A stretch of 64,000 nucleotides of DNA from Clostridia bacterium. Its GTDB lineage: Bacteria > Bacillota > Clostridia > Christensenellales > Borkfalkiaceae. A program made the position numbers and the translations under genes. This document shows positions 1 through 64,000 of this stretch, piece by piece (the first letter of the stretch is position 1; each line of letters opens with the position of its first letter). The stretch is from positions 31,623-95,622 of the forward strand of contig JAFQWV010000027.1 of the NCBI GenBank assembly GCA_017407325.1, given 5' to 3'. The notes beneath the pieces were generated by a model, which had not been told where the DNA came from, made no database searches, and saw only the letters and a program-made list of their open reading frames with translations.

Positions 1-23
1 TTTGTCAATAGTTTTTATTATAA

Positions 24-34110: not shown

Positions 34111-34137
34111 TACGGAACTCTATTAAGGAGTTTTATT

Positions 34138-43578: not shown

Positions 43579-43702
43579 CATTGTGGTCGTGAACGCTATC
43601 GCGTTCCGTAATTAACATATAATTTTTTTCTAAGGATTTTAATTATTATATAATTTCACACCTCATCCGTCGCTTCGCGACACCTTCCCCTCAAGGGGAA
43701 GG
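43578..43702. repeat. mosaic repeat modules shared with 61116-61353
   Basis: CATTGTGGTCGTGAACGCTAnCnCGTTCCGT..TAACATATA recurs at 61280-61323. ATTATTATATAA recurs at about 61341. ACACCTCATCCGTCGC..CGCGACACCTTCCCCTCAAGGGGAAGG recurs inverted at 61116-61160. Confidence 0.85.
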
Positions 43703-43724
43703 CTTGTTTTAAATTTTGTTGAAT

Positions 43725-44070
43725 TACGCGTCAGTCTACACGACTGGCAGGTCGCCTGCCTAAAAACCTTAGAAACAAGGTCGGGCAACCCGACTGTTAT
43801 GTATTGTTTATTACCCAAACTTAAAGCACGCGTCAGCCACACGACTGGCAGGTCGCCTGCCTAAAAACCTTAGAAGCGAGCAAGACAAGGCACAAAAAAA
43901 GTGTTTGGATTGGATAGACCTTTTTTATTACGGTTAAAAGGCTTAGAAACAAGTTAGGCTAGGCTCGAAAAAGCCCTTCGGATTGGATAGACCTTGCCTA
44001 TTATATGATTAAAAACCTTAGAAGCGAGCAAGACAAGGCACAAAAAAAGTGTTTGGATTGGATAGACCTT
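43725..44070. repeat. nested dispersed direct repeats in the Fic-kdgK spacer
   Basis: ACGCGTCAGnCnACACGACTGGCAGGTCGCCTGCCTAAAAACCTTAGAA occurs twice (about 43726 and 43829). AAAAACCTTAGAAGCGAGCAAGACAAGGCACAAAAAAAGTGTTTGGATTGGATAGACC occurs twice (about 43863 and 44010). GGATTGGATAGACC occurs 3 times. Confidence 0.85.
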
Positions 44071-49500: not shown

Positions 49501-52500
49501 TATGATGCAACTTGAGCAGATTGATCAATAGACCAACCGATAAATTCGATATTTTGAGCAGCCGGTGCGTTGTTTAATCCAGATTCAGCGAAAGTAGGCA
49601 ACTCAATCTTCGCACTCTTAACGAACGGAGTAGCATTTGCATAAGTTCCACTACCATCGGTAGATAAGTATTTTTCAACGCCTGCATATACAAACTTAAC
49701 CTTAACGATATTATCGCTAGTAGTTTTTACAGGATAAGCATTAATTAACAACTTAGAAATGATTGTTTCGTCGCCTACCGACTTAACGAAAAGTTCAGTT
49801 AGACCGTTCGTGTTTATTGATAGCGTCGCAAGTTCAGCATTTGTGTAAACCGCTAAATCGCTTGAAGTCGCTAAAGAGTTACCACTTGCGTCAACTACTG
49901 ATAACGTACTTGAATTGTTCGACGTTCTAACGCCACCAACAAACTTAACTTCAACCCTTTCAACACCATTAGGAATTGAAATCTTCAACGCATTTTCGCC
50001 TGCGTCTAAAGTTAAGTATCCGTTTTCGTTAGCGTAACTGTTCGATAATCCAGTAAGAACTAATTGGTTACCAACGTCACCGTTAGAATCGATTACTAAG
50101 TCACCAGCAACACCTTGCGTCCAGTCGCTTGAATCTTTTCTTTCAAAACCAACGCCCGCGTTTGCATTTTTACTATCTTGGATAGTAACGTGTGCTGATG
50201 CTTGGTAAGTATTTGATTCTATTGTTTCATCTTCATTATTAGTTGTAATAAACGCATAACCTATATCAGCGTACAAAGTAGTCGTGAAGACGTATTCGTT
50301 ACCGATGTCTTTATTGAAATTGTCACAAGTCCATACAAGACTGTCAGGAATCCAATCTTTAGAAACACCGCTTCTGTCTATGTAATAACCTCTAACTTCA
50401 AACGCTGAAATTACTGCAGATTTAGTAGTTCCGATAGGATAAATGAAATTCTTTTCAACGAGTGGTTCATTGTCAGTAAATTGAATTATGATATTTCTGA
50501 GAGTCAAGTCTAACGTTACGCCAATTTGTTGTAAGTTTTCATTAACGCCGTCACTAAATGCAAAACTACCATAATCACTATCGTCAAGCTTTATATAACC
50601 TGTGAGAGTTTGAGTTCCACTTTGTAAGCTAGAAAGCGTCCATCCGCTAACTGCAAGTGACCAGTCGATAGCAAGATTCTTACCAAAGCCGTCACCCGTT
50701 ACCATTACGTTTGCAGGAAGCTCTAAGGCGCTTGCCGAAACAATTGCAGTTCCACTTGTAGAACCTTCTTCTCTGTAAACGTTTTCCATAACGTCAACTA
50801 TATATTTTTCTAAATCTTGTAGCTCGTTTGGTGTTACGATTTCCTTAGTATGAATATCCTCAATGAAGTATGCGTACAAGTAAATCGTATCGCCGTCAAT
50901 CATTTCAAACGACGGATAGAACTTATTTTCACCGTCAAACGTCGCTTGATTTTGGAATACGCCGTCGTCAAGATACCAACCCATAAAGATATAACCGTTT
51001 AAAGTTGGATCTTCACTAGGTTTAGTAATACCGTCAACTAAATTAAACGTTCCGCCATCGTGCGTTGCTTCATTGCTTATAAACTCGTAATTGTAAGTAA
51101 TAGGAGTCCACTTAGCGTAAAGCGTAATATCTTCAGAAACTGTTAATTCTTGACCGTAAGTGTATGCCACTGCACCACCTTCTGTCGTTGCCCAACCGGC
51201 AAACGTATAACCGTCACGGTGGAAGTGGTTGATATCGACGATAGTTGAACCACTTACGAGATAATCGTAAGTTTCTTCAGCGCCTTCTATATTATTGTTA
51301 TAAGTAAGCGTATTACCTACAAATTGATCGTTTGAAACGCTAGCGCTAATTCCAACGATATAAATAGCGCTATTTCCCGTTGTAGTAATATTAATAGTCG
51401 AAGCTTCGCTTACTGTAGTTGCGTAAACTGCTATGTCAGCAACGAACGGAGTAAACGTACTACCATCATCAAACGTTCTTGATACAGAATATTCTGTACC
51501 GTTGATAGTAAATTTGCTTGAACCACTTGCTACAACAGCAGAAACTCTTATAGACAACGCACTTTCAGTAGTAATGCCACTAACGTTTACGCTAATAGTA
51601 TTACCTTTTGCAAGAGAAAGCATAGGCTTAGACATAGCGTTAGAACCTGCCGTTGCACCACTTGCGTCAATAGTTAATACGTCGCCGTTTTTAGCAATAA
51701 TTTTTCCGTTATATTTAGTAGTCCAATCATTACCTAAAGTTTGAGAGCAATCGGTGTAAACCGTATCAATCGCTTGTAGTTCGCTAGAGTATGCGTCCCA
51801 CTTAGCGGTTAAAGTTTTACCCGAGCCCCATTGTGCGTATAAAACCGTACCTTCAGGAATGACACCTACTAAGCGATTATCAGATGCATTAGGGTTGAAA
51901 ATATCACCCGGATAATAAGTATCACCTTGACCGTTAGATTGAGTATTCCAACTTAAGAATACTTTATCTTCTCTTGTTTCTGCAGTCATATCAAACTCGT
52001 TTTCCGAAAGTGGGCCACGACCGTTAGTGTAATACTTAGTAAACGAATCAGTTGAACCGTCGTTAGCATAGTAAGTCAACGCCCTTGCACGTTGCCATAC
52101 AGCGTAAAGCGTAATATTACCGTCAAGTTCTAACGATTTACCAACTTGATAGTTTTGTTCAATACTATCTGAGCCTTTCGTTCTAGACCAACCGATAAAT
52201 TCGTAGCCTTCGCGCTCGAAGAAGTTCTTTTCAACGATAGCGTCATCACCCGAACCGTTTTCGGCGTAAACGACTTCACGAGTTAACGCGTTATCTGTGC
52301 CGTCGTTTGCGTGATAAGTAATAATATGACTTTCGTCCTCAACCATAGTACACTCAACCTTAATGCCGGTTAAGTAAATATTTGTTGATCTATGAGTATT
52401 TCTAACCGTAAATACGGTTTCATCTCCCGAATATTCATATATATGATATGAAGGAGAGAACTCGTAGAAGTAGTTAAAGTCTGTTTCATTATCAGTTTCC

Positions 52501-55500
52501 GTGTAGGAGTGGTCAGTAACCAACATTTTATCTTTACCGCTGTTCAACGGACCAACCTCTAACGTTACGTCGTTACCTGATGCACGGAATCTAACTGCAT
52601 AAACTGAGATTTTAACAGAAGCATAACCCTTTGGAACTACTACGTAGATAAACGGAGCATTAAGACTTGTTTGGTGATAACCTTTAATCATTGACCAAGT
52701 TTGACCGTGATAGTCTGTATCAACGAGTGCCGCAGTAATACCGTCGTCTTCGTCAACGACAGTTTCGTCGTCAGCAATAATCTTAACTTCACCGTTTCTT
52801 GCAACGATCGTACCAGGAATCGTCGCTTCGTCAGTTGCAACTTGATAGTAGTCTGACCAAGCCTTATCGTGCGTATTAGAATTATTGTTATAGAGTACGT
52901 GGTCGCCAGAGCCTGTGTAAGCAAACGCTGTAAATTCAGCAGAATACGTTGCGTAATCTTCAGCTTCTACTACGGTTACTTTGCAATAAACGTAATACGT
53001 ACCGTCTTGACTTCTATCATAAGCTTGACTGTCAATTTCAACACCAGCCCAACTAGAATACCAAACCGTACCACTAGGTGCAGTGTCTAAAGTTGCCCTA
53101 AAGATATATGTACCTGCTACGTTTGCATTATAAGCAACACTAGTCCAACTACCTACGATAACCGCGTAGTCGTAGTCGCTTGTCTCGTTACCGTTTATGT
53201 CGCAAACTACAAATTCAGTAGGTAAACTGTTGATAATTTCAGATTCAGTAGTACCTTCTTGAACGGTCTTTTCTAAGTCTTTAACGATAACAGGTAAAGT
53301 AGCCGTATACCAATTTGCGGTAACAGTCGTATCTTCGTTGAACGTCGTATCTTGCGTAATGCTTGGAGACCAACCGTCAAACGTATATTCATAACCGTTT
53401 ACCGTAAATCTGACTTCAGAGAAATCAGGCATAGAGTCAAGGCTATCGCCACTGTAAATTTTATATTCAAGTGCAAACGAACCAAAAACTTGACTAATTT
53501 GATCGCTTGTCATACCAGCAGGCGCGTTCACGTCGAAAGTGATAGTAATCTTTGGTTCTTCTTCCATTATAACGTAAAGATTATTAGTTTCACTTGTGAC
53601 AGTTAAAACGTCGCCAGGGTTATAATAACTTGCTGTTCCGCTTGTGGCGGTTGCCCATCTACTGAACAAATAGTGATCAGGTAAATCAAGGTGTTCAGTT
53701 TGCGGTTTAACGATTACTTTTGCCTGATTTAAATAGTTATAAGGTTCTTCTATCGCTTCGCCGTAAGAATTATTGTCATTGATAACTGTATGGTAATATA
53801 ATTTGTTAGTAGAGTCTTCAATATTCTCATCGTTTATGTTTTCATCTTCGTATTGAGCGTTAACAACGATAGAATGAAGCGCAGTATTGTTACCGCTTGA
53901 GAATAAGTAAAGAATATTTCCGTAATCATCAGTCGTACTTATACTTAAATTCGTATAAGTTGCACCAACAGTTTGACTAAGCGGAACTTGTATTCCATCT
54001 TCAGTCCAAAGCGAAACGTTATCTTTCGTTGCATTCGTTACTTTAATAACGATTAAAAGCATCGAATACTCATTTGGTAAGTCAATTTTAATCGGCGCGT
54101 CATTTTTATAAGATGAGTTACTGAAAGTCGCACCTGTTAAATTGATAATACCGTCGCTTGTTATTTCGCCAATATTATCTGCGTCAACTACGATAGAAAC
54201 TTCACCGTTTTCTGACAACGTATAGCGGTCGTTTGTTAAAGTAAGTCCGCTATTCCATGCAGTTCTACCGTCTGACATATAACCGGCACCAGCCATAACT
54301 TGCGCGCCAATTACGTAAACTTCAACGATAGATTCGACCGTTATAGTTGACGTTTCAACTTCTCCAATCTCGTAAAGATATCCACTTGGAACGCTTATCG
54401 TACCAGTTACTTTATAGAAACCAGCCACGTCAATATTTGCATAGTTACTGATATTTTTAGCCGTGTAATTACCGTCTAATTCTGTTGCGTAAGTCGCATT
54501 TACGTAATCCCAATCAACAGTCCAACTTGCCGTAGAACCGTTAGCAAGACGTATCGTCGTAGTGCTTGGTAAATATAAACCGTAAACTTTAGCATCAGCA
54601 AGCGGAACTTTACCGCGTGTTGATTCAGGAGTATCTGCACTATCAACAACCGTATACCACTTAGCGTATAGAGTCATATCTCTTAATACGTTATCAATCG
54701 AATCTGTATAAACGTTGCCGAGTGAATCTACCCAATGGCTGAATACGTAACCTTTAGAAGAAGTGGTCGGAACAATAGCTGTAAGATCTAACGAACCACC
54801 GTTTTCAACTTTTTGATCAGCGATAGCACCGTCAAAAGGTCTAGCGTCGTTATCGTCAGTAACAAACGAAATCGTTCTTTCAACGTCTGTATTAATTTCC
54901 GTAGTCAATTCTAACGAAATTTCATAGAATCTTGCACCACTACTAAAGTTTAAGTAATAAGTAATATCATCACCGTTTTCATCTGCGGTGTCAAACGAAC
55001 CAGAAGTACCGGTCAAGTATGTATTTGAAACAGATGGAGTAATGATTGCAGTTTCCCCATTACCCATAGAAGATCCTATAGTTTTAGAAACCCAAATATT
55101 AATTTGTCCGTTACTACTTGGAGTACCTACAACTTTAACTTTAAACGAAGAATAAACAGAACTTGGAACTTTAAAACTAATATATCTTGTCGATTTTGAA
55201 GATCCACCAGTCTTAATTACCGTACCAGTTTGTAAATCACCACTACCAAATACGATATCCGTTCTTTCTTCTGCCATATTTGATAAACCGTGGAAAGTTA
55301 CTTCAATACCTTGCGAGTTAGGCACGGTTAGTTGTTCACCATTTTTATAAATGATAAAGTTTTCTATTTCCGTAGGTATATCAATCTTTTTTTCCCAAAC
55401 AGCGTATAAAGTAACCGTTGCATCTTGAGTATTAGCAAGGTTTTCAACGCTTTCACCGTTTAGATATACCACGTCACCGTTTGCGCTCGTTGCCCAGCCT

Positions 55501-58500
55501 TTAAAAGTGTAACCTTCTAGCGTAAAGCCGTTTTGAGTTAATGCTGTAGCCTGACCGTAAGTTGCAACTATCGGACTCATTTCTCCCGTTGCATCTTCAT
55601 TATTTTTATTAAACGCGATATTGTACGTAATAGGATTCCAAGTAGCAGTTAAAGTTACGTCACTTGCTGGCATCGTAAACGAAGCGTTTGCTTGTTTTAC
55701 GCCGTCAAACGCACTTGATTCCCAACCAGCGAAAGTATAACCTAATCTTGAAGGATTAGCCCCACTGATTGTAAACGTAACACCTTCTTTAAACCTATTA
55801 GAATTGCTTGGCATTGAAATTTCTTCGCCATCAACACCGTCTACGTAAGTTACGCTGTAAGTTGCAGTCCAACTTGCCGTAAGCGTTACGTTATTTTCAG
55901 GCATAGTAAACGTTTCACCTGCTTGCTTAGTTCCGCTAAATGCAGATGACGTCCAACCTGCAAAAATATAATTAGTTCTTGTAGGAACAGTTGAACTGAT
56001 AGTAACAGTGTCCCCGCTTGAATATTGGGTACTGTCCGTAGGAGCGTTTGCCCCACCGTTAGCGTTATAAGTTACGGTATATGTATCTGGTGTTTCGCCC
56101 GTTGCGTTCCACTTAGCGTAAAGCGTAGTATCGTTTGTAACGACTGTATTGAAATCATAAGCCTTAGTTAAGTTACTGTCTAAGTACCAACCGCCAAAAG
56201 TATAATCAGTCTTAGTAGGAGCAGTCGGCTCAGAAACTTTTCCACCAACCGCAATATTAGAAACGTTACTTACAGAAGTTCCACCGTTTTCTTCAAAAGA
56301 CACGGTAAACGTCGGCGCCTTACTTAACTCAACTTTAATACCAGTTATAAAACCGTTATTGCTTGCATTTCCATTTGAAATAGTATAAGTTCCAGCAGAT
56401 AATGAACTAGTCGTATACGATCCAGGTGTAAACTCTTTGAATAAATTTGTTTCCGTATAGAACGCTGAAGAAGCGATTATATCACCTGTACTACCATTTA
56501 TTGAAACCGTCCAGTTTTTACTATTTGTTACGGTGGTTCCGTAAACAGTAACTTTTGCAGTATAACCTTCTTTAATAACGATAGTTGCAAAATCTTTACT
56601 ATTTGCCGCAATTCTTATAAACGGCTCAGTAATTGCACGGTGGGTTGAGTCAGTTATACACTTGCTTGAATCAAATTTTACCGTAACACCCGTGTTGTCA
56701 ATAATTGTATAATATCCATCGCTCAAATAATCAGCGTACAAATCTGTCCAACGAACGTTTTGGTAAATATCAGCATTAGTGGTAACGTATTTACCGTCAC
56801 TATCCATGGTATAAGAATTCCAAGTAACGGTAGAATCGCTTGCAGAAACTCTCGAACTGATAGAACCAGGAGCAATTTGGAAAACAGGTTTAAGCGTCAT
56901 ATCCTTCGTTGGATGTATTTCAGCATTTTCTGCATATTCAACACCGTCTTGGTCTATCCACGCTATAAAAGTATAATTTGTTCTTGCAACGTTAGTTGGC
57001 GCGTTAAAACCGTCAACAAAATTGGCATTAATCACAGAATTTAGTTTCGCGGTGATGTTTATACCTGTATTTCCGTTGAAATCGTAGGTAATATTGTAAT
57101 AATTATTTCTACTACCTGTTAAATCTTGCACTATGGCACTGAAGTCAATAGTAATTGTATACTCCGTGGCAGTCCAAACGGCGTAAATTGTTCCGTTTGA
57201 AAGTTCAGCATCTTCAATTAAATCACCATTTGCATCGAACAAATCTGCGCTTGTTGCGTTTTCAGAACTTGCAAAACCTGCAAAATCATAATGTTCTCTA
57301 CTTGGAATATGCGAACTTAAAAGTTCAGGATTTGCAATTGCTACTTTAATACCCGAAAGCGTTTCGCTACCGCCAGCGAAACTACCACCGTTAGCGTCAA
57401 GTGTAAACGTGTATGCTTCAACGCTATCTTCAAGTTCCCAACCTGCGTAAAGAACCATATCCGACGTAATAATGGTTGAGTTTAATACAAACTGCGTCGT
57501 TAATTGTGCGTCTATATACCAACCCGTAAAGTCGTAATTATCTCTTGTTGGCGTAGGTAAAGTACCAGTATAAACGTTACCGACAACAGCCGCGATATAT
57601 TCGTCACCCGAAAGCGTTCCGCCGTTTGCATCTAACGGAATTTGTCTTTCGTTAACGTTAGGTGTAGTAGGCTTGTTTACAGTTTCGTTAAAATATTCGA
57701 TAAACGCTAAAATAAACGGAGCCGTACCTTTTGAACCATTTGCAACCGCAGATTTATTAACATATGTAGACGCTAGACCTGAATTCGCATCACTTAAACT
57801 TGTAGCACCACAAATATCGTATACGTTAATATCCGAACCGCTAACTGATACAGAGTGTGCATAAATACCTTCAAAAACTTGTCTACCAATATCGTTATAT
57901 GAAAGAGGATCTCCCCCTGCAGTAGTAGTATAAGTTCCTGACAAATATCCCGCTTTACCGCCTTTCATTAAAGCGTAAGCAAACATCGCAGAACCTGACG
58001 TTTCAAGATAGTTATCCGTATTCTTTATCGTGCCTTGGTTTAAAACATGATAGAACATTTTAGAATCAGGGTCTTGATGCGCTAAAATACTATCCATCAA
58101 ATCTTTAAATACAGCCGTCAAATACGCTCTACTGCTCGTATATGTAGTATTTTTAAACGTAATTTCGTTTATCGTTTCGTCTGGCAAATAATCTAAAACG
58201 TCAACGAGCGACATAGCAAGCCAGCCTGTACCACGTGACCAGAAAGCCGAACTTACGCCGTCTTCATTTGCCCAAGGCGCAGCACCGTCCGCAGAATAAC
58301 CGTGGTAATAAAGGCCTGTGTCACTATCGCGCATATTATTAACTACTACGGCGTATTGGTCAATTAAGCCTTGCACGGTATATCTAAAATCAGTAGTTCC
58401 TAACTGCGCTTTACCGCCTGCCGCTAAATATCTTGCATAAAGCGGAGCGTACATATATAAACCGTCAAGCCAAACTTCATTAACTTCATCCGGCGTATGC

Positions 58501-60419
58501 CAAGGGTTATAAGTATCTTCAAGCCTATGACTCTCGTCGTTTGCAAACTGAGTTAACGCCCACTCAACTGCTCTTAAAAATTTGTCGTCACCAGAAAACT
58601 CGTAAGCATCGAATAAAACGCGGGTAGTTTGCAAGAAGTCAAGTCTTACGATATTGTTGAACTGGCTAGCACTTTCTGGATTAGGCGTGTCACTTGAATT
58701 GCTATATTGAACGATAGTACCGTCTTCACGGATATATCTTTCGAGATAATCAACCACGAATTGTTGATACTTATCTATCGTTTCTCCTTGAGTGTCTTCG
58801 TTTAAGTTATAAGAAAGGTTTACGAGCGAATTTAAGAAAATGCCGTTTACGTAGTTAAAGTAACCACGCCATTTTTCATCTTCACCAACCCACGAGCCTT
58901 GCACCATATTTTTCCATGCTTCGCCGTTAACCTTACTGTTATCCGTGGTTGTGTCTACGTGCCCTTCGATATAATCAAGAATCGCATCTTGATCAACTTC
59001 GTTAAACCAAAGTGCGTATAAAGTTATATCCTCACTTACCTTATCCAAGTCAAAATCAAACTCGTCTCTATAAGTCGATTTATCCGTAGTTTTATACCAA
59101 CCCATAAAGGTATAACCTGTTCTTTCTGGGTTCTCAGGTCTATCGACCATACCGTCGTCGCTTGCGACTTCCATCGTCTCTTTACCGTTAGACATTGTAC
59201 CGTCTTGCGCGTTAAACGTAATGGTATAATTATTCGCATTCCATTGCGCAACAAACGTTACGTCACTTGCTGGCATAGTAAACGTTCCGCCAGGCTGATA
59301 CGTATTATTACCGTATTTCCAGCCCGTAAACGTATATTTAGATCTTGTCGGAATAACGCTACTAATATTTATTTTATCGCCCGATTCGTACTGATTATTA
59401 TCACTCGGTGCACCGCTACCGCCGTTTGCATCATACGTCACCGTAAAATCAGTCTTTTCCGTCCAATTAGCAGTAAGTACTACATTGGCAGTTCCCATTG
59501 TAAACTGTCCGTTTGAAATTATGACACCACCACTTGTAACAGTCCAACCATCAAACAAGTAATTATCTTTAGTCGGATTAGAAGTTATAACGTCAGAAAT
59601 CTTTACCGTAGCACCTTCAGCAAAACTTCCACCGCTTACGTTACTAGTACTACCATTAAACTTACCACCGTTTAAATTATAAGTTACGGTATAAGTAGCC
59701 GCCGGCGTTTCACCTGCTGGAGTCATATCCGTAATACGTAAAGCACTAACTTTTACTTTTTTATTACTTCCAACCAATTCAACAGTATCAAATACTAAAG
59801 TACTAGTGCCAGCTGCAGCAGTTGTAAATTCAACATAACCAACTCTACCAGTACTTGAAGTGTGTTTGTAGTAATTCATAAAATCGGTAGGCGTGCTACC
59901 ACTAGCAAACGCAGTTGCATGTTTTGTAATATTCTTAGTTGAAGGAGTTTCAGAATTGAAAGAATACGAATAAGTAGGGCTCGATGTTAAATCAGCTGAA
60001 CCAGCGATTAACATTTCAACTTTTGCTGGATATAACAAGTTGAATTCAACAGTAATATCATCACTATGACCATTACTTTGCGTCAAAAGATTTTTGGATG
60101 TTCCACTAGCACCGTTAATAGAAACAGATTCAGCATCGCCTATTTTCCAATTTTGATTAGGTGATATAAAAGTAACATAATTAGCAGAACCAGTTGGCTG
60201 AACCGTTCCCAAAGTGTAACTCGTGCCAGATTTTGTAAGATATACAGTTTTAGCCCCAGTTATAGTAGCACTACTCAAATGCAAGTCAAATGTTTTATCG
60301 CCATTAGCAGCGCTTGCGGTGTATTTTGTGTCGAAGGTTGAAATGCCCACGCCAAAAGACACTACCATTAAAAACGATAGCGCAACGATTGCCAAACTTC
60401 TAAATTTCTTCTTAAACAT
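46578..60419 (-). CDS. giant secreted multidomain protein: Listeria-Bacteroides (InlB B-type) repeats, GH88/GH105-like domain, multiple beta-sandwich modules
   Basis: Uninterrupted 4613-codon ORF. AAAGGAG SD before the ATG. Signal peptide MFKKKFRSLAIVALSFLMVVSF. About 25 copies of the ..Y.V.Y..NGG ... Y.F.GW ... LYA.W repeat. No LPXTG or other anchor at the C-terminus. Confidence 0.9.
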   Translation of the reverse strand: MFKKKFRSLAIVALSFLMVVSFGVGISTFDTKYTASAANGDKTFDLHLSSATITGAKTVYLTKSGTSYTLGTVQPTGSANYVTFISPNQNWKIGDAESVSINGASGTSKNLLTQSNGHSDDITVEFNLLYPAKVEMLIAGSADLTSSPTYSYSFNSETPSTKNITKHATAFASGSTPTDFMNYYKHTSSTGRVGYVEFTTAAAGTSTLVFDTVELVGSNKKVKVSALRITDMTPAGETPAATYTVTYNLNGGKFNGSTSNVSGGSFAEGATVKISDVITSNPTKDNYLFDGWTVTSGGVIISNGQFTMGTANVVLTANWTEKTDFTVTYDANGGSGAPSDNNQYESGDKINISSVIPTRSKYTFTGWKYGNNTYQPGGTFTMPASDVTFVAQWNANNYTITFNAQDGTMSNGKETMEVASDDGMVDRPENPERTGYTFMGWYKTTDKSTYRDEFDFDLDKVSEDITLYALWFNEVDQDAILDYIEGHVDTTTDNSKVNGEAWKNMVQGSWVGEDEKWRGYFNYVNGIFLNSLVNLSYNLNEDTQGETIDKYQQFVVDYLERYIREDGTIVQYSNSSDTPNPESASQFNNIVRLDFLQTTRVLFDAYEFSGDDKFLRAVEWALTQFANDESHRLEDTYNPWHTPDEVNEVWLDGLYMYAPLYARYLAAGGKAQLGTTDFRYTVQGLIDQYAVVVNNMRDSDTGLYYHGYSADGAAPWANEDGVSSAFWSRGTGWLAMSLVDVLDYLPDETINEITFKNTTYTSSRAYLTAVFKDLMDSILAHQDPDSKMFYHVLNQGTIKNTDNYLETSGSAMFAYALMKGGKAGYLSGTYTTTAGGDPLSYNDIGRQVFEGIYAHSVSVSGSDINVYDICGATSLSDANSGLASTYVNKSAVANGSKGTAPFILAFIEYFNETVNKPTTPNVNERQIPLDANGGTLSGDEYIAAVVGNVYTGTLPTPTRDNYDFTGWYIDAQLTTQFVLNSTIITSDMVLYAGWELEDSVEAYTFTLDANGGSFAGGSETLSGIKVAIANPELLSSHIPSREHYDFAGFASSENATSADLFDANGDLIEDAELSNGTIYAVWTATEYTITIDFSAIVQDLTGSRNNYYNITYDFNGNTGINITAKLNSVINANFVDGFNAPTNVARTNYTFIAWIDQDGVEYAENAEIHPTKDMTLKPVFQIAPGSISSRVSASDSTVTWNSYTMDSDGKYVTTNADIYQNVRWTDLYADYLSDGYYTIIDNTGVTVKFDSSKCITDSTHRAITEPFIRIAANSKDFATIVIKEGYTAKVTVYGTTVTNSKNWTVSINGSTGDIIASSAFYTETNLFKEFTPGSYTTSSLSAGTYTISNGNASNNGFITGIKVELSKAPTFTVSFEENGGTSVSNVSNIAVGGKVSEPTAPTKTDYTFGGWYLDSNLTKAYDFNTVVTNDTTLYAKWNATGETPDTYTVTYNANGGANAPTDSTQYSSGDTVTISSTVPTRTNYIFAGWTSSAFSGTKQAGETFTMPENNVTLTASWTATYSVTYVDGVDGEEISMPSNSNRFKEGVTFTISGANPSRLGYTFAGWESSAFDGVKQANASFTMPASDVTLTATWNPITYNIAFNKNNEDATGEMSPIVATYGQATALTQNGFTLEGYTFKGWATSANGDVVYLNGESVENLANTQDATVTLYAVWEKKIDIPTEIENFIIYKNGEQLTVPNSQGIEVTFHGLSNMAEERTDIVFGSGDLQTGTVIKTGGSSKSTRYISFKVPSSVYSSFKVKVVGTPSSNGQINIWVSKTIGSSMGNGETAIITPSVSNTYLTGTSGSFDTADENGDDITYYLNFSSGARFYEISLELTTEINTDVERTISFVTDDNDARPFDGAIADQKVENGGSLDLTAIVPTTSSKGYVFSHWVDSLGNVYTDSIDNVLRDMTLYAKWYTVVDSADTPESTRGKVPLADAKVYGLYLPSTTTIRLANGSTASWTVDWDYVNATYATELDGNYTAKNISNYANIDVAGFYKVTGTISVPSGYLYEIGEVETSTITVESIVEVYVIGAQVMAGAGYMSDGRTAWNSGLTLTNDRYTLSENGEVSIVVDADNIGEITSDGIINLTGATFSNSSYKNDAPIKIDLPNEYSMLLIVIKVTNATKDNVSLWTEDGIQVPLSQTVGATYTNLSISTTDDYGNILYLFSSGNNTALHSIVVNAQYEDENINDENIEDSTNKLYYHTVINDNNSYGEAIEEPYNYLNQAKVIVKPQTEHLDLPDHYLFSRWATATSGTASYYNPGDVLTVTSETNNLYVIMEEEPKITITFDVNAPAGMTSDQISQVFGSFALEYKIYSGDSLDSMPDFSEVRFTVNGYEYTFDGWSPSITQDTTFNEDTTVTANWYTATLPVIVKDLEKTVQEGTTESEIINSLPTEFVVCDINGNETSDYDYAVIVGSWTSVAYNANVAGTYIFRATLDTAPSGTVWYSSWAGVEIDSQAYDRSQDGTYYVYCKVTVVEAEDYATYSAEFTAFAYTGSGDHVLYNNNSNTHDKAWSDYYQVATDEATIPGTIVARNGEVKIIADDETVVDEDDGITAALVDTDYHGQTWSMIKGYHQTSLNAPFIYVVVPKGYASVKISVYAVRFRASGNDVTLEVGPLNSGKDKMLVTDHSYTETDNETDFNYFYEFSPSYHIYEYSGDETVFTVRNTHRSTNIYLTGIKVECTMVEDESHIITYHANDGTDNALTREVVYAENGSGDDAIVEKNFFEREGYEFIGWSRTKGSDSIEQNYQVGKSLELDGNITLYAVWQRARALTYYANDGSTDSFTKYYTNGRGPLSENEFDMTAETREDKVFLSWNTQSNGQGDTYYPGDIFNPNASDNRLVGVIPEGTVLYAQWGSGKTLTAKWDAYSSELQAIDTVYTDCSQTLGNDWTTKYNGKIIAKNGDVLTIDASGATAGSNAMSKPMLSLAKGNTISVNVSGITTESALSIRVSAVVASGSSKFTINGTEYSVSRTFDDGSTFTPFVADIAVYATTVSEASTINITTTGNSAIYIVGISASVSNDQFVGNTLTYNNNIEGAEETYDYLVSGSTIVDINHFHRDGYTFAGWATTEGGAVAYTYGQELTVSEDITLYAKWTPITYNYEFISNEATHDGGTFNLVDGITKPSEDPTLNGYIFMGWYLDDGVFQNQATFDGENKFYPSFEMIDGDTIYLYAYFIEDIHTKEIVTPNELQDLEKYIVDVMENVYREEGSTSGTAIVSASALELPANVMVTGDGFGKNLAIDWSLAVSGWTLSSLQSGTQTLTGYIKLDDSDYGSFAFSDGVNENLQQIGVTLDLTLRNIIIQFTDNEPLVEKNFIYPIGTTKSAVISAFEVRGYYIDRSGVSKDWIPDSLVWTCDNFNKDIGNEYVFTTTLYADIGYAFITTNNEDETIESNTYQASAHVTIQDSKNANAGVGFERKDSSDWTQGVAGDLVIDSNGDVGNQLVLTGLSNSYANENGYLTLDAGENALKISIPNGVERVEVKFVGGVRTSNNSSTLSVVDASGNSLATSSDLAVYTNAELATLSINTNGLTELFVKSVGDETIISKLLINAYPVKTTSDNIVKVKFVYAGVEKYLSTDGSGTYANATPFVKSAKIELPTFAESGLNNAPAAQNIEFIGWSIDQSAQVASYQAGGLYDIDLYSDVIVEGNEEKVSTLYAVFNVGYYTLTFDSGFGNTVEYKIPKNKQVNEVITIRGVGREQALKDLELSRVGYNFVDWYYSNGEIFSSNIMLNDHVVVTADWTPKTYTINYKNGNELITTDMVSYTELFDAPVLAENPSYINTTRTFRTWTYNGADWNFGQASLESSGIITDNDIYEIDLQADFGAKVTFKTEYAEVVGSAYPVVQDSNVYPIGYRYALTDKFTNLMGYTFVGWSLVQNSPTAEYTTESVITLTENITLFAVWRANEYKITFESGNANIDFATLEVEGKTLENNSGMFTFNTELPTITATANGYVIHSWYYIDSQGFERTWVFDGDNPNKVMALEPDDETFTLYARWGITVNFEKFSVIANDDEFNQNADLYDSVIVPVGDAIPFVHTQGTASLGSALHVRPQIPGYSFVGWYTDNEGAQEFDINQAFTIDFINSLKANSTDTAVTIYAGFEKVTGNVVITFVDTFDTGATMPVSVQHANSTYFTVTAEYILPDNTVAEFEGWSLYPDGSGEIYGLDDEVFIEGDTVLYAFWTISITDIEIDTPTVRSDETIQVQIPYALDGINGEKVFESVFEIKWKLAEATNADDPSDETIYDLTMGAHNVAAGRYSVPVELVLESGYVWNGSNLELLDNGHYATTIEIIVLNSAVPYYIVKIYSIEDTTALNSDYRLDKVKAEISTNSTADSGTEITLAVTWNSQIDTTIWGTHYVLGSVHAGSYELKVGVSQTVSATIEVTKNGEENAYLYKTYQDGTMPNAPDAPSGFEFLCWTDKGVTAVGQNGTAPAGEWTAMYTKLSFTEGGSIRLNKDYTGIRFTAHLEFYGTNYVAELMKNKSNLSGAVSVTMNFNYEKDGTTYNVGTGQDFMNMTQSVEAGNAIITFSGVISDLVVYDNDGNFVNNDNCDIEFTPIAKVKLNGAEADSLTAGFSVSASHVASAVIGNYAEGTYQHSVLLDYTK
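57690..58982 (-). other. GH88/GH105-like (unsaturated glucuronyl/rhamnogalacturonyl hydrolase) domain within the giant protein (about aa 480-910)
   Basis: VWLDGLYMYAPLYA, SAFWSRGTGWLAMSLVD and NYLETSGSAMFAYALMKG match the (alpha/alpha)6 GH88/GH105 family motifs (YteR/UGL-like) as I remember them. Confidence 0.7.
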
Positions 60420-60528
60420 ATATGTACTCCTTTTCGGAAAAAGCCTTTTTTTGTTCTACTTTCCCCGACAACGGATTATTCCCGTATTTTACGCGCAAAA
60501 GCACGCGATAAATATTATAATATATAAT

Positions 60529-60557
60529 ATATTAACAAAACGCGACAAAATTGTCAA
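60529..60557 (-). promoter_or_regulatory. sigma-A-type promoter of the giant gene
   Basis: Minus strand reads TTGACA (60552-60557), 17-nt spacer, TAATAT (60529-60534); about 100-nt leader. Confidence 0.65.
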
Positions 60558-60632
60558 TAATATTATAAAAACTTGTAGCAGGTTGCAAGAAATTTTCCAC
60601 TTCATATAAAGCACATTGCACAAGAAAACAAA

Positions 60633-60727
60633 ATAAATTGCAAAATAAATTTTGCATAAATTGACGGCGTTTGCCGTCATAAATTGACCGCTAACTGCGT
60701 TCATAAATTGCAACCCAAGTTGCATTA
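60633..60727 (-). repeat. word-plus-hairpin array, word CAATTTAT (reverse orientation, 4 units)
   Basis: The plus strand reads ATAAATTG GCAAAATaaATTTTGC ATAAATTG GACGGCgtttGCCGTC ATAAATTG GACCGCtaactGCGTTC ATAAATTG GCAACccaaGTTGC. As written, the terminal G of each word and the first G of the next hairpin are the same base. Confidence 0.85.
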
Positions 60728-60765
60728 TGGTTATTTTTTCATTGCGAGCGTTACTTCTATTTATT

Positions 60766-60948
60766 CCTACCCCGTCATTGCGAGCGCGATTTATCGCGCG
60801 TGGCAATCTCTAAAGAACTAACCGAGCACTTTTAACGCCGAACACTAAAACAACCCACACGCACTTTATAGATTCTTACGCTTTCGCTCAGAATGACACT
60901 AATGAGTGTTGTAAAATAATTAGACGGCGTTTAAAAAAAACGCACGAC
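60766..60948 (+). repeat. 184-bp structured/MITE-like element, copy 1
   Basis: Starts CCTACCCCGTCATTGCGAGCGCGATTTATCGCGCGTGGCAATCTCTAAAG and ends AGACGGCGTTTAAAAAAAACGCACGAC. Contains internal long-range inverted repeats. Confidence 0.85.
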
Positions 60949-60954
60949 AATAAT

Positions 60955-61078
60955 GCAAATCGTGATTTGCAATTTATGAAAGTTTTAACTTTCAATTTAT
61001 GCGCCTAAAGCGCAATTTATGAACTTTGCAAAAGTTCAATTTATCGCAGTTTTTGCGAATAAAATTCGCAAAAACTGC
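60955..61078 (+). repeat. word-plus-hairpin array, word AATTTATG(A) (5 hairpins)
   Basis: GCAAATCgtGATTTGC, GAAAGTTttAACTTTC, GCGCctaaaGCGC, GAACTTTgcaAAAGTTC and a 15-bp stem GCAGTTTTTGCGAATaaaATTCGCAAAAACTGC. Words are at 60971, 60994, 61014 and 61038. Confidence 0.88.
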
Positions 61079-61169
61079 CCTATAACGCGATTATTGCACC
61101 ATTTTTTCCCCCTAGCCTTTCCCTTGAGGGGAAGGTGTCGCCCCGCGACGGATGAGGTGTAAGATTGTT

Positions 61170-61310
61170 AATGATGTGCAAAATAAATTTTGCATGATGC
61201 GCTAACTTGTCAGTTAGCATGAAGCGCAATCCTACTTTTTGCGCACGGATTACATGATGTGTAAGTATGCAAGCAACTTACATTGTGGTCGTGAACGCTA
61301 GCACGTTCCG
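61170..61310 (+). repeat. word-plus-hairpin array, word CATGATG/CATGAAG
   Basis: TGCAAAATaaATTTTGCA (same hairpin as at 60639-60656), GCTAACttgtcaGTTAGC, GCGCAA..TTGCGC, TGTAAGT..ACTTACA and GAACGctagcaCGTTC. Confidence 0.8.
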
Positions 61311-61390
61311 TGAATAACATATATTTTAATTTCGGACTGAAATTATTATATAAATCGTTTTTTGTCATTGCAGCGCGATTTTTATTTACT

Positions 61391-61574
61391 CCTACCCCGT
61401 CATTGCGAGCGCGATTTATCGCGCGTGGCAATCTCTAAAGAACTAACCGAGCACTTTTAACACCCGAACACTAAAATAACCCACAACGCACTTTAGAGAT
61501 TCTTACGCTTTCGCTCAGAATGACAATATTCAGTATTATAAAATAATTAGACGGCGTTTAAAAAAACGCACGAC
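61391..61574 (+). repeat. 184-bp structured/MITE-like element, copy 2
   Basis: Near-identical to 60766-60948 and 61707-61890. Confidence 0.88.
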
Positions 61575-61580
61575 CACAAT

Positions 61581-61672
61581 GCAAATCTGAGATTTGCAAA
61601 TCATGAAAGCCTGCTTTCAAATCACGAACGGCTTGCCGTTCAAATCATGAAGGCTCAGCCTTCAAATCATCC
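61581..61672 (+). repeat. word-plus-hairpin array, word AAATCATGA (4 units)
   Basis: GCAAATCtgaGATTTGC, GAAAGCctGCTTTC, GAACGGCttGCCGTTC and GAAGGCtcaGCCTTC. Words are at 61598, 61619, 61642 and 61664. Confidence 0.88.
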
Positions 61673-61706
61673 TCTAAGGCAACATATCGAGCGCGATTTT
61701 TTTACT

Positions 61707-61890
61707 CCTACCCCGTCATTGCGAGCGCGATTTATCGCGCGTGGCAATCTCTAAAGAACTAACCGCGCACTTTTAACACCCGAACGTAAAAACAACCCAC
61801 AACGCACTTTAGAGATTCTTACGCTACCGCTCAGAATGACAGTATTCAGTATTATAAAATAATTAGACGGCGTTTAAAAAAACGCACGAC
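61707..61890 (+). repeat. 184-bp structured/MITE-like element, copy 3
   Basis: Near-identical to copies 1 and 2. The word CATATCGAG is present both before it (61683-61691) and after it. Confidence 0.88.
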
Positions 61891-61896
61891 CTTTAT

Positions 61897-62004
61897 GAAA
61901 GTTAAAAACTTGCTATCGAGCAACCGTTAGGTTGCATATCGAGTTGCTCCAGCAACATATCGAGCGCGAACAAAGTTCGCGCATATCGAGTAGCCTTTAA
62001 GCTG
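61897..62004 (+). repeat. word-plus-hairpin array, word CATATCGAG (4-5 units)
   Basis: AAGTTaaaAACTT, CAACCgttaGGTTG, TTGCtccaGCAA, CGCGAACaaaGTTCGCG and TAGCctttaaGCTG. Words are at 61912, 61935, 61956 and 61982. Confidence 0.88.
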
Positions 62005-62080
62005 CCCAATACTGCCGTACGGTTACTAGCGTCAAAAATTGCCAAATTTCAGGCGATTTTATGCTTTTTGGTCGAGTATT

Positions 62081-62124
62081 CAAAAAAGGCGCGAATTTGC
62101 CAAATAACGGCAAATTCGCGCCTT
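62081..62124 (-). terminator. second terminator-like hairpin downstream of the mini-ORF
   Basis: 16-bp stem AAGGCGCGAATTTGCC / GGCAAATTCGCGCCTT, followed by a T-run on the minus strand. Confidence 0.6.
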
Positions 62125-62139
62125 AAAATCAATATTTAT

Positions 62140-62187
62140 TAAAAACATAAAAATTAAAAGCCTTGCGAAATACTTCGCAAGGCTTTA
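62140..62187 (-). terminator. intrinsic terminator after the mini-ORF
   Basis: AAAGCCTTGCGAAatacTTCGCAAGGCTTT, followed on the minus strand by TTTAATTTTTATGTTTTT. Confidence 0.85.
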
Positions 62188-62201
62188 AGATTGTTTTTTA
62201 A

Positions 62202-62330
62202 TTACCAAACGATACCGATATCGTCTGCGTCAACGTCGTTGTCAGCACCTAATTGACTTGCAGTTACAACGTCTTCTGTAAAGAAGGTAATTTCAAATTG
62301 TAATTCTTCATAATTTTTCATAATTTTCAT
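62202..62330 (-). CDS. candidate 42-aa highly acidic mini-protein
   Basis: AGGAGGT SD is directly upstream of ATG 62330, 9 nt after the stop of the upstream repeat-protein gene. Peptide is MKIMKNYEELQFEITFFTEDVVTASQLGADNDVDADDIGIVW. A terminator follows. Confidence 0.5.
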   Translation of the reverse strand: MKIMKNYEELQFEITFFTEDVVTASQLGADNDVDADDIGIVW

Positions 62331-62339
62331 ACCTCCTAA

Positions 62340-64000
62340 TTAACCATTTAATACTACGCCGTAAATTTCGGCTTGAGCATCAGTAAGTTGACCAGCATCA
62401 TAAAGCTTTTGCGCTTTACTTACGATTGTATCACTTTCAATTGCATCACTTTCAGCGATAATTGATACGCCGTTGATTGTAATCGTCATATCAACGTTTA
62501 ATGCGTTTTGTGCTTTTGCTGAATCAATACCAGTTATTGAAAGGTTTGCAAGATATCCACTTTGATTTTCGTTATAAGCAATATTAAGAACATCAACGTT
62601 TACGTTTGCACTAGAACCATTTGTAAGGTTAGCAACGTTAAACACAGCACTTGCATTTAAAGTTAAACCATTTAAAGCGTTTTCGTTTGCATCAACGATA
62701 GTTACAACGTAACCAAATCTAACTGCTGGACTTTCAGCACTCTTTCTAAAACTAATACCTAAATATTCAGCCTTAGCAAATGCATTTACATCACCAAACT
62801 TGCCAATATAAGTATAACCAAAATCTGAAATTTGAATTTCTTTAATATAAGTACTTGATTGCGAACCGTCAACTTCAAATCTGTAAACGCCATTTTCAGT
62901 TGTAACATATTCAAAATCTTTAAATGCACCTGCCGTTGTCGTAACCGTTGAAAGTGCAGTAGTACTATTATTATTATAGAAGGAAGATGCTACTTCTCTA
63001 CCCGAGTATATTGTAACAACAATTTTAGTGTTAGCTTCAGCAAAGAATTCAATATATGCACCATCTTTACCTTTTATCATACTATAAGATACATTATCAA
63101 TAGTTTGTGCTTCAACACCCCAATTGTTTGAACTGTTAGTTCCTAATGTATATCCCGCTTCTTGAGCATCATCAGCCGTTGTATAATTGTTAAAATCATA
63201 AGAAACAGCAGGTGTTAATAATGAGATATTAGCAGTTACTGTTGCGTTTGATACATCGTAACCAGTCTTCGCTTTTAAAGTACCAATAACAACGCCGTCA
63301 GCATATTCACCCCAAACAACTTCAAATTGAACCTCATCAATTGTTACAATTGCAGGTAAAGCGTCGTATATACCGTCTTGAGTAGCAGTAATATTAAGTG
63401 AAGTACTTGCAACAGCAATTTCTTTTACGATAACTTGCATTGTAGGAGCGGCTGCAGTTACGTCGTAGACGTTAGCGTCTACTGTTACGTTACCAGTTAA
63501 AGTATAGTTTTGAAGTTTGGTTGCGTCGTAATCTTTATCCCATTTCCAAGTTACAGGCAAAGAATATTCGCCAGAAGTAACTACGGTAGGAAGTTCGATT
63601 TCGTCTATTGCAGTTCCAAAATCAATTTCTACGTTAGAAACAGCGTCATATTCAGTGATTGAAGGCTTAACGAAGTTAGCGTCAAGTTCCCAAACTGCTT
63701 TAAAGGTTGTGTCAGAATTGATTGGAACTGTTGTAATATCAATTACAGTTGAACCGTCAGTTGACCAACCTAAGAAATTGTAACCAGTCTTAGTAGGTGC
63801 TGTAGGGGCAGACGTTAAAGTTTTACCTTCTTCAACAGTTACAGCTGCAACTTCGCTACCACCGTCAGTATCAAATGATACGGTGTAGTTAGTTACCAAC
63901 GGAGTGATTTCAACATCATAGATAAAAAACTTTCTGGCAGTTCCTGAATTACCACACATCAATGCCGCGTTAGCTGTAAAAACAGTGGTTCCTTTATCTA
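62340..64000 (-). CDS. Listeria-Bacteroides repeat / Ig-like / beta-sandwich module protein, N-terminus beyond the window edge
   Basis: The reading frame stays open to position 64000, upstream of the TTG/ATG given in the ORF track. Contains YTVSFDTDGG...YNFLGWS...FKAVW, a module ending STYIKEIQIS, and a C-terminal ISFR...AVRF domain like the giant protein's C-terminus. Confidence 0.85.
   Translation of the reverse strand, partial: DKGTTVFTANAALMCGNSGTARKFFIYDVEITPLVTNYTVSFDTDGGSEVAAVTVEEGKTLTSAPTAPTKTGYNFLGWSTDGSTVIDITTVPINSDTTFKAVWELDANFVKPSITEYDAVSNVEIDFGTAIDEIELPTVVTSGEYSLPVTWKWDKDYDATKLQNYTLTGNVTVDANVYDVTAAAPTMQVIVKEIAVASTSLNITATQDGIYDALPAIVTIDEVQFEVVWGEYADGVVIGTLKAKTGYDVSNATVTANISLLTPAVSYDFNNYTTADDAQEAGYTLGTNSSNNWGVEAQTIDNVSYSMIKGKDGAYIEFFAEANTKIVVTIYSGREVASSFYNNNSTTALSTVTTTAGAFKDFEYVTTENGVYRFEVDGSQSSTYIKEIQISDFGYTYIGKFGDVNAFAKAEYLGISFRKSAESPAVRFGYVVTIVDANENALNGLTLNASAVFNVANLTNGSSANVNVDVLNIAYNENQSGYLANLSITGIDSAKAQNALNVDMTITINGVSIIAESDAIESDTIVSKAQKLYDAGQLTDAQAEIYGVVLNG

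Follow-up and report, generated by a model that had tools for sequence, protein, structure and literature searches.

Two described groups of bacterial repeats come closest to an element that occurs as three direct copies within a 64,000-nt stretch of DNA from a Clostridia metagenome-assembled genome (MAG; GenBank assembly GCA_017407325.1, contig JAFQWV010000027.1, positions 31,623 to 95,622; referred to here as the window, with all coordinates counted from its first letter). One is the CGTC-tagged REP superfamily defined by Di Nocera, De Gregorio and Rocco (2013, BMC Genomics 14:522; PMC3733652), whose members have a CGTC, TGTC or CCTC tag, a stem that opens with A-T pairs and a short tail. 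These repeats are mostly arranged as 'HH' dimers with the tags outside, often as heterodimers and with conserved spacers of 20–100 bp; Micavibrio, Bradyrhizobium, Neisseria (dRS3) and Rickettsia are among their hosts, and according to the survey they 'apparently lack a dedicated transposase' (PMC3733652). The other is represented by the Neisseria NTS (CGTCATTCCCGCGMAVGCGGGAATCYRG), studied by Chenal et al. (2025, Nat Commun 16:2388; PMC11893778). The 94-aa single-domain GIY-YIG (cd10448) nuclease SsnA binds NTS as single-stranded DNA (ssDNA) only and not as RNA, and the Ssn cut falls a few nt 5′ of the hairpin, as shown for Neisseria, Wolbachia and others (PMC11893778). Cutting depends on the GTC of NTS, and binding on the C that comes directly behind the palindrome. 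Ssn homologues are distributed across phyla and are flanked by 'Ssn-related motifs' (SRM) in an NTS-ssnA-NTS architecture, and NTS repeats cluster at surface and virulence genes and modulate transformation (PMC11893778).

Each copy of the window element is, on balance, probably a DNA-level repeat of this kind, a head-to-head heterodimer of CGTC/TGTC-tagged hairpins of the NTS/SRM type that is linked to Ssn nucleases, rather than an RNA gene. The three copies lie in a 1.8-kb non-coding spacer (60420–62201) together with arrays of hairpins. The spacer is bordered by the first codons of a 4613-aa surface-protein gene (46578–60419, − strand) and, at its other end, by a 42-aa peptide gene (62202–62330, − strand) that follows a gene for a protein with InlB-B repeats (Flg_new). 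The region 60600–62040 contains 23 perfect hairpins of at least 6 bp, whereas 2.7 are expected and none of 200 dinucleotide shuffles has more than 8.

Organization of the repeats

A reading of the sequence alone (the original prediction) had proposed three direct copies of a 184-bp unit. Repeat searches and MAFFT alignment place direct copies at 60747–60961, 61372–61597 and 61688–61913 that are 87–94% identical, with a mean column identity of 93%, and a 37-nt probe from the element has exactly three matches in the window (0 expected from shuffles). The repeat is thus real, although its limits are drawn differently: each unit is a composite of one or more truncated 36-nt 'head' repeats, a core of 124–126 nt and a separable, AT-rich tail of 57 nt. 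The core is a unit in its own right, because a fourth copy just beyond the end of the window (L001:1–114) stops exactly at AATGAC, without the tail, and is followed by a different repeat module; the tail is present with the other nine of the ten known core copies.

The core spans GTCATTGCGAGCG to CGCTCAGAATGAC, with GTCATT...AATGAC as its natural limits (copy 1, 60774–60897; copy 2, 61399–61524; copy 3, 61715–61840; all + strand). The long-range pairing predicted between these two ends holds at 11 of 13 positions, with the arms separated by 99–100 nt and their starts ~113 nt apart, and the predicted second pairing (AATCTCTAAAG with CTTTAGAGATT), the nested GCGCGATTTATCGCGC hairpin and the A/C-rich centre of ~50 nt are all present in the copies. 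Folding z-scores of the element are −4.7 (+ strand) and −3.5 (− strand). In terms of smaller units, the core consists of two inverted hairpin modules, with their tags outside, of the form YGTC-ATTNN...N′N′AAT-C (motifs GTCATTGCGAG / CTCAGAATGAC) around a spacer put at ~50 or ~50–60 nt, which is ~90% conserved among nine copies. The tags read CGTCAT (+ strand) and TGTCAT (− strand) in all copies, and the copies are GC/CT chimeras, each having one GC-type and one CT-type end. When folded as ssDNA, the GC-type module of copy 2 (61398–61435, + strand) takes the form C-GTC-[ATTGC-GA-(GCGCGAT TT ATCGCGC)-GTG-GCAAT]-CTC, and its CT-type module (61496–61525, − strand) the form T-GTC-[ATTCT-GA-(GCGAAAGC)-GTA-AGAAT]-CTC. 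The GTC is unpaired in this fold, the stem runs from ATT to AAT and a C follows, in the same register as in the Neisseria NTS control; no copy has lost the GTC, the ATT..AAT stem or the C behind it from either module.

The head repeats begin with GTCATTGCGAGCGCGATTTTTATTTAC... and continue into a spacer that ends with CCCC or CATAAT. The head repeat before copy 1 (60738–60773, + strand) consists of CATTGCGAGCG and a spacer ending with CCCC, and echoes the first part of the 5′ module of the core; copy 2 is preceded by GTCATTGC-AGCGCGATTTTT... and then CCCC (61364–61398, + strand), and copy 3 by a head-like repeat, CATATCGAGCGCGATTTTTTTACTCCTACCCC (61683–61714, + strand). The partial 5′ duplications that had been noted ahead of the copies are therefore real, as are the flanking arrays, and in two related loci, L193 (12870, 12906 and 12942) and L194, the 36-nt head unit stands in tandem before copies of the core. 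The tail of copy 1 (60898–60955, + strand) is AT-rich, contains the predicted GCGTTT/AAACGC hairpin followed by ACGACAATAATG, and doubles as the leader of the next array, a position that the tails of copy 2 (61525–61581, + strand) and copy 3 (61841–61897, + strand) occupy as well. Promoter-like sequences in the tail of copy 2 are ATGACA-16-AATAAT (+ strand) and TTTAAA-16-TATAAT (− strand). The latter, which includes the TATAAT noted for the opposite strand in the original prediction, is also present in copy 3, but this box is TACAAC in five of nine aligned core copies.

The two open reading frames (ORFs) beginning with MPRAINRARNDGVG start inside the repeat and are artefacts, as suspected; when the peptides of the spurious ORFs were concatenated and compared with protein databases, no related protein was found among 5.8 billion.

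Related modules in other genomes

Scanning one genome per species with the pattern GTCATTNNGAGCG-N(85–115)-CGCTCNNAATGAC locates these termini at no fewer than (at least) 120 loci in Chloroflexota, Bacteroidota, Acidobacteriota, and Alpha-, Beta- and Gammaproteobacteria, among others, and the matches listed add Verrucomicrobiota, Gemmatimonadota, Nitrospirota, Abditibacteriota and Clostridia MAGs to the hosts. The termini are nearly identical across phyla. In all of the listed loci, two conserved ends that mirror each other enclose a variable centre, with an extra hairpin in some of them, and tandem partial ends that resemble the head repeats are found in other phyla (e.g. L010, L049 and L086). 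The usual module class is GTCATT-NN-GAGCG-(mini-hairpin GCGNAGC or a longer hairpin)-N′N′AATC, with GCGNAGC or GCGAAAGC as the usual apex. Both d(GCGAAGC) and d(GCGAAAGC) are exceptionally stable DNA mini-hairpins, and this apex is a hint, and no more, that DNA is the relevant form.

Among the matches listed, to which all counts in this paragraph refer, the NN dinucleotide covaries with its local N′N′ partner (ATTNN...N′N′AAT) in 198 of 244 modules of other genomes, and nine of 18 chimeric elements keep the local complement at both ends while the long-range NN pairing is lost. This local covariation, together with its survival in chimeras, identifies the end hairpin of ~28–38 nt as the unit, rather than the long closing stem. 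The elements are flanked by Y-Y (5′) and R-R (3′), target-site duplications are absent (118 elements), and the GTC is preceded by T in 67 of the 118 and by C in another 44. A reading of the ends as terminators was rejected, as the flanks are Y-Y and R-R and there is neither an A-run nor a T-run.

Searches elsewhere were unproductive: the gapped termini pattern has 0 matches in viral contigs, blastn against plasmids gave no match, a metagenome scan for the 5′ module bearing the extra hairpin (P3, see below) yielded, among the matches listed, one unrelated GC-rich match, and a literature search with sequence strings returned only unrelated primers.

GIY-YIG genes beside the modules

ORF clustering over the 120 loci listed reveals a small GIY-YIG protein in three (L013, L029 and L031), with no recurring transposase and no Y1 transposase cluster. 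In L031 (Micavibrio; 787–1353) a 99-aa GIY-YIG gene is situated between identical copies of the element, which carry an extra hairpin of the window type (GCGCG-TGAAA-CGCGC), and in L013 the element ends 36 nt ahead of the GIY-YIG start codon. Three further GIY-YIG homologues, picked only by contig number and length, are all bracketed by the same termini, and in the five cases examined the termini directly flank GIY-YIG genes of ~95 aa. In L162, for example, module, gene and module follow each other without a gap (1468–1500, 1501–1794 and 1795–1824). The associated proteins match Pfam PF01541 only and have no NCBIfam equivalog.

GIY-YIG genes between GTCATTGCGAG...CTCGCAATGAC modules are found at L162:1468–1824, L172:1483–1830, L182:1397–1970 and L031:787–1353. 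Many of the GIY-YIG homologues are on very short contigs, which is expected if the repeats break assemblies around them.

Copy number at related loci

The copies are not restricted to this locus, and further ones are present at other loci and in related genomes: the ten known core copies comprise the three in the window, one in L001, and two each in L189, L193 and L194. The copies in the last three are all in the spacers of paralogous or orthologous loci with the order Flg_new protein, ~40-aa peptide, spacer and giant adhesin. L189, L193 and L194 are close relatives (72–97% identity in coding DNA, 92–96% in the core), and because the genomes compared are close, mosaic relatives, the conservation of the core is not remarkable by itself.

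The same spacer aligned from three genomes contains three, two and one core copies, respectively. Copy 3 is the sole copy common to all three versions, and copy 2 is missing at the corresponding position in L194 and L189. At this position L189 has two array leaders fused back-to-back, resembling an empty site, and the short repeats flanking the fusion (ATTATTT and TTTATAT) are so AT-rich that they cannot be scored as a target duplication; in L194 one leader and one array are missing along with copy 2. The more distant L195 contains arrays and the M2 repeat family (see below) with the core absent, and L196 has none of these repeats.

Proposed behaviour and alternative explanations

If the copies are Ssn-linked hairpin dimers, each unit would fold as an ssDNA hairpin with an unpaired GTC, an ATT-to-AAT stem and a C, a grammar that matches the Ssn target hairpins. 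Because the units are inverted, each strand has one 'sense' unit at its 5′ end, and cuts are predicted just outside both ends of the core. The element would be a non-autonomous relative of the module–GIY-YIG gene–module units of other genomes, and its likely partner is an Ssn-type nuclease encoded elsewhere in the genome rather than a transposase. Such a nuclease would maintain, spread or rearrange the element by ssDNA nicking and recombination, and the three local copies probably arose by duplication or insertion of a composite of ~220 nt (head repeats, core and tail) between array leaders. By analogy with NTS and dRS3, the expected consequence would be a recombination-prone, strain-variable spacer beside mosaic surface-protein genes.

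Several observations weigh against this interpretation. The published SRM pattern, HGTCWYN(0-2)YYVSBRHN(0-5)WNVSBRGN(0-2)RNCYNB, has 0 matches on either strand of the window, although the NTS control is found; it also misses the modules flanking the GIY-YIG genes examined, and has any match in just 10 of the 120 family loci among the matches listed. The NTS stem is a continuous 8 bp, whereas that of the window modules is 5 bp, is interrupted by GA and has an apical mini-hairpin, and the CT-type module on its own folds weakly (−2.9 kcal/mol, z = −0.9). The sole relative of the associated GIY-YIG proteins in the PDB is a weak UPF0213 match. A GIY-YIG hidden Markov model search found no such gene in the window nor in 11 other loci of the species group, so the cognate nuclease has to be assumed. 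Substitutions in a single partner of a pair leave G-U/G-T pairing possible on the − strand, a pattern that an RNA would show too. Finally, all ten known copies are confined to a few repeat-rich spacers beside paralogous surface-protein loci, so co-duplication, rather than mobility, could explain much of the distribution.

This last point is shared with an explanation in which the copies are ordinary local segmental duplications of a repeat-rich spacer with neither mobility nor a dedicated protein, and the SRM/CGTC resemblance is an ancient, inert relic. The similarity of copies 1–3 extends past the core into the head repeat and the tail, which makes the duplicated unit larger than the palindrome alone; all of the copies are beside paralogous loci encoding the Flg_new protein, the ~40-aa peptide and the giant adhesin; the core identity of 92–96% resembles that of neighbouring coding DNA in related genomes (88–97%); and there is the lack of a nuclease gene in the window and the 11 other loci. 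However, the fourth copy has an exact core boundary next to a different module, the copies sit between arrays that differ, presence and absence alternate at a single position while the flanking leaders stay, and the critical GTC, ATT..AAT stem and C persist in both modules throughout, and we consider duplication of this simple kind unlikely. One of the two structural readings in the original prediction was a MITE-like (miniature inverted-repeat transposable element) or small non-autonomous element. It is the better of the two, on the strength of the pan-bacterial inverted hairpin pairs, the flanking of GIY-YIG genes, the literature and the variable copy number, but a classical MITE, in which a deletion derivative of an insertion sequence is acted on by a DDE or HUH (RAYT/IS200-type) transposase at 13-bp terminal inverted repeats, is very unlikely. 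The terminal inverted repeats, the length of ~125 nt and the multiple copies would suit it, and REP/REPIN-RAYT systems share the doublet architecture (PMC3733652), but no direct target-site duplication longer than 2 nt is seen in 118 elements and no transposase recurs in 120 loci (both among the matches listed), the window itself has no transposase, as already noted in the original prediction, the published survey found CGTC repeats without transposase association (PMC3733652), and the tag is CGTC rather than the GTAG of RAYT-linked REPs. Also weighed was a cis-regulatory or phase-variation device in which inverted arrays round copy 1 flip the promoter of the giant adhesin gene. Inverted arrays do flank this copy (arms of 31–40 nt, 70–81% complementary), promoter-like sites face both ways and the element is upstream of the 4613-aa surface-protein gene; with no invertase or recombinase gene nearby, no matching inverted arms at copies 2 and 3, no inverted-orientation variant among the related loci, and arrays beside housekeeping genes too, such a device is extremely improbable.

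The second structural reading, a three-way-junction RNA, would make the core a structured noncoding RNA with a P1 closing stem, a long P2 and a P3 hairpin, transcribed from the − strand by a promoter in the AT-rich tail. Predicted folding is more stable for the − strand than for the + strand (−59.9 vs −44.2 kcal/mol), with C-A on the + strand becoming U-G, the − strand promoter-like sequence of copies 2 and 3 is just upstream, and the one-sided changes in nine copies mostly preserve G-U, A-U or G-C pairs on the − strand. Extra − strand G-U pairs are nevertheless expected from a G/T-rich centre, and the G-U strand asymmetry in 122 elements among the matches listed (446 vs 425 expected, p = 0.004) is confounded by these centres and was not used as RNA evidence. 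Compensatory changes number 0 of 44 predicted pairs among the nine copies, two of which break a P2 pair; the −10 box is the one that varies to TACAAC, and the fourth copy is without any tail; there is no terminator past the core; the wider family covaries in its local end hairpins and not in the long-range P1; and Ssn nucleases do not bind RNA (PMC11893778). Rfam 15 offers no family for the element at gathering level in the window, at E≤10 in 60400–62340, or at gathering level in 15 family loci; the only gathering-level matches are a tetrahydrofolate (THF) riboswitch, which lies at another place in the window, and a tRNA. The RNA reading has no positive support from these comparisons and is quite unlikely, and the hairpin dimer, acting most likely as ssDNA, remains the preferred account. 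A hammerhead or other ribozyme was also considered for CUGAGCGAA and rejected by inspection, as the conserved core residues are absent and CUGA is found only in the CT variant.

Hairpin-linker arrays

The arrays beside the copies are composed of palindromes that start with TG (or G) and end with CA (or C), joined by a linker of 5–7 nt that is constant within each array (ATTTA, AATCA, ATATCGA or CATCA). The repeated 'words' of the arrays correspond to this linker together with the 2 nt on either side of it, which close one palindrome and open the next. Ahead of every array stands a conserved leader, a hairpin and then ACGACCACAATG or a variant, and the opposite strand of the leader reads GTCGT + hairpin + C, which is reminiscent of the module grammar. 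To the left of copy 1 is an array with linker ATTTA and the word CAATTTATG read outward (60633–60725, − strand), and to its right another with CAATTTATG (60956–61045, + strand), followed by a perfect 15-bp hairpin (61046–61078). An array with a CATCA/CATGATG linker and its own leader (GAACG..CGTTC hairpin, ACGACCACAATG) is located at 61170–61360 (− strand) and has a paralogue in L152. The array at 61582–61672 (+ strand; linker AATCA, 'CAAATCATG') has paralogues in L001 and L195, a stem of one of them differing by a compensatory change, and that at 61898–62015 (+ strand; linker ATATCGA, 'CATATCGAG') has paralogues at 43470–43592 (− strand) and in L001. A similar first hairpin, GCAAATC..GATTTGC, had been predicted after every copy; it is found after copies 1 and 2, whereas the array of copy 3 opens with AAGTTAAAAACTT. 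The suggestion that the element targets the arrays is not sustained. Arrays also occur with no core beside them, and the core itself is placed between the leaders of arrays.

Arrays elsewhere in the window have no adjoining core. One follows the glutaminyl-tRNA synthetase (GlnRS) gene (27–111, linker ATTTA), one between the class-I lysyl-tRNA synthetase gene and spoIIGA (23585–23745) has two inverted arms, AGTGAAGTT / AACTTCACT, and one is located between the Fic and PfkB genes (43470–43592; CTCGATATG). The spacer after the GlnRS gene varies by strain (L152:11623–12059 compared with window 1–111, L153, L154 and L155) while its flanks are identical; in L152 a divergent double array of ~436 nt with a different linker (CATTTCATG) replaces the single 4-unit array of the others.

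Paralogous array stems differ by compensatory changes, such as AAGGC..GCCTT vs AAGAT..ATCTT, GCAAAA..TTTTGC vs GCAAGC..GCTTGC, and TAGCTT..AAGCTA vs TAGCC..GGCTA, the last with a T-G intermediate in the window. All linkers of one array can change in concert between paralogues, and whole units are gained or lost. Two general rules for the arrays were tried and discarded. Opposite arrays do not always carry complementary words; this is true for copy 1, 23585–23745 and L152, but fails for copy 3 and L189. Nor are the words fully explained as target-site duplications of tiny hairpin insertions, as paralogous hairpins are kept while their linkers differ in concert. An array-leader pattern has 15 matches in viral contigs, all of them chance and none with arrays, and our search found no published description of hairpin-linker arrays. 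We put forward, as a speculative and rather unlikely idea, that the arrays constitute an undescribed hypervariable intergenic cassette system in Clostridia, which would include the variant Ssn-type dimers at its leaders, could be written or remodelled by an ssDNA-acting enzyme and could drive adhesin recombination and antigenic mosaicism.

A further repeat family, M2, is represented within the spacer at 61100–61165 (+ strand) by two small hairpins, CCCTTGAGGGGAAGG..GCGAC..GGATGAGGTG, the general form being CCTTCCCCTTGAGGGGAAGG..(G)CGAC/ACCGC..GGATGAGGTG. Other M2 copies are at 43668–43720 (− strand), L001:121–165 and 1881–1925, and in L189 and L195. In L001, direct M2 copies and an array bracket a helix-turn-helix–HipA toxin-antitoxin pair, and assembly L134 breaks inside M2.

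Genomic setting and other features

The window is chromosomal DNA of an uncultured bacterium and carries spoIIGA, a sigma factor, an [FeFe] hydrogenase, a pyruvate formate-lyase and the THF riboswitch. Its GlnRS and type IIA topoisomerase B proteins are identical to MBQ2718269.1 and MBQ2718293.1, and genes identical to those of the window are also present in metagenome assemblies tagged XIEF21 and LIUQ22. Seven independent short-read metagenome assemblies end at or before the edge of the spacer, and at or before the array at 61898–62015.

The peptide gene at the right side of the spacer (62202–62330, − strand) belongs to a conserved group encoding acidic peptides of 39–42 aa (MKIMKNYEELQFEITFFTEDVV...DDIGIVW), situated 10–19 nt past the stop codon of a Flg_new gene of ~750 aa in all paralogous and orthologous loci (counterparts at L189:12290–12409, L193:12335–12460, L194:2461–2580 and L196:12398–12520). 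The giant adhesin genes encode 4613–6001 aa (window 46578–60419; L189, L193 and L194), with GH88 and Flg_new repeats in the paralogues. Both the adhesin and Flg_new genes are mosaic, with segments ranging from 72% to 97–100% nucleotide identity between close relatives, a sequence pattern that suggests frequent recombination at these loci.

The THF riboswitch (33972–34064, + strand; 75.9 bits) overlaps the start of the listed ORF 34018–34815 for an ECF-transporter S component; translation presumably begins further downstream. Two ORFs without a Pfam family contain in-frame tandem repeats, one at 41114–41202 (27 nt × 3.3, 100% identity), for which the matching region of L129 has 4 copies in place of ~3.3, and one at 13270–13418 (39 nt × 3.8, 94% identity). 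The Fic–PfkB spacer contains 2.8 copies of a 75-nt tandem repeat (43862–44070), the number of which is strain-variable (L130 and L134 are shorter).

Comparison with known systems

Compared with the CGTC-tagged REPs, the core has a terminal CGTC/TGTC tag, A and T at the first two stem positions, a short tail, and an inverted heterodimer arrangement with the tags outside and a conserved spacer of ~50–60 nt, within the described 20–100 bp; the dimer can also fold into one large hairpin. It differs in its stem-loop geometry, as the described stems are 8–9 bp with loops of 4–5 nt whereas in the window modules a basal stem of 5 bp leads to GA, an apical hairpin and a 3-nt bulge. A CTC tail takes the place of the CCA described, and the family has been described mainly in Alphaproteobacteria, not in Clostridia.

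Compared with the SRM and NTS, the modules are likewise hairpin repeats of ~28–38 nt with an unpaired (C/T)GTC head and a stem that opens A-T, T-A, T-A. The H-GTC-W-Y head is present as CGTCAT/TGTCAT in all copies, a C comes right after the palindrome (ATTGC...GCAAT and ATTCT...AGAAT, each followed by CTC), and the many copies are clustered at surface-protein genes. In other genomes the same termini bracket single-domain GIY-YIG genes of ~95 aa, as in the NTS-ssnA-NTS architecture. In contrast, the host is a spore-forming Clostridia MAG while most described Ssn hosts are Gram-negative, and no ssn gene has been found so far in the loci scanned from the species group of this genome.

REPIN/RAYT (TnpA_REP) systems consist of two inverted REP hairpins and a spacer that form a non-autonomous unit of ~100 nt, served by a single-copy, hairpin-binding ssDNA nuclease encoded elsewhere. 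The doublet architecture is shared with the core (PMC3733652). Their tag is GTAG and their enzyme is of the HUH/Y1 type, whereas the window tag is (C/T)GTC and is GIY-YIG-linked; REP sequences are also lineage-specific, and the termini here are near-identical across phyla. Neisseria NIMEs (dRS3-flanked), E. coli BIMEs and Staphylococcus STAR elements are mosaic intergenic repeat clusters. The window spacer resembles them as a repeat-rich, strain-variable mosaic of palindromes and short constant motifs near variable surface or virulence genes, but its arrays are made of variable TG...CA palindromes with a constant 5–7-nt linker per array and a conserved leader.

By sequence comparison the core is filed as a variant class of the CGTC-REP/Ssn-related hairpin-dimer family and not as a member by the published definitions, because the SRM pattern is unmatched and the stem-loop geometry departs from the 2013 definition. 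If the assignment is correct, three apparent 'mystery RNAs' would be accounted for by a system characterised only in 2025, and spurious ORFs such as MPRAINRARNDGVG... could be masked in annotation. The arrays, which vary between strains and break short-read assemblies, may merit separate study. Because the module class GTCATT-NN-GAGCG...N′N′AATC, at 120 or more loci, flanks Ssn-like genes and evades the published pattern, the census of Ssn targets is probably an underestimate. Such sites would then extend to a spore-forming lineage of gut or rumen Clostridia, where they stand beside giant mosaic adhesin genes, in parallel with the NTS/dRS3 repeats that cluster at variable surface genes in Neisseria.

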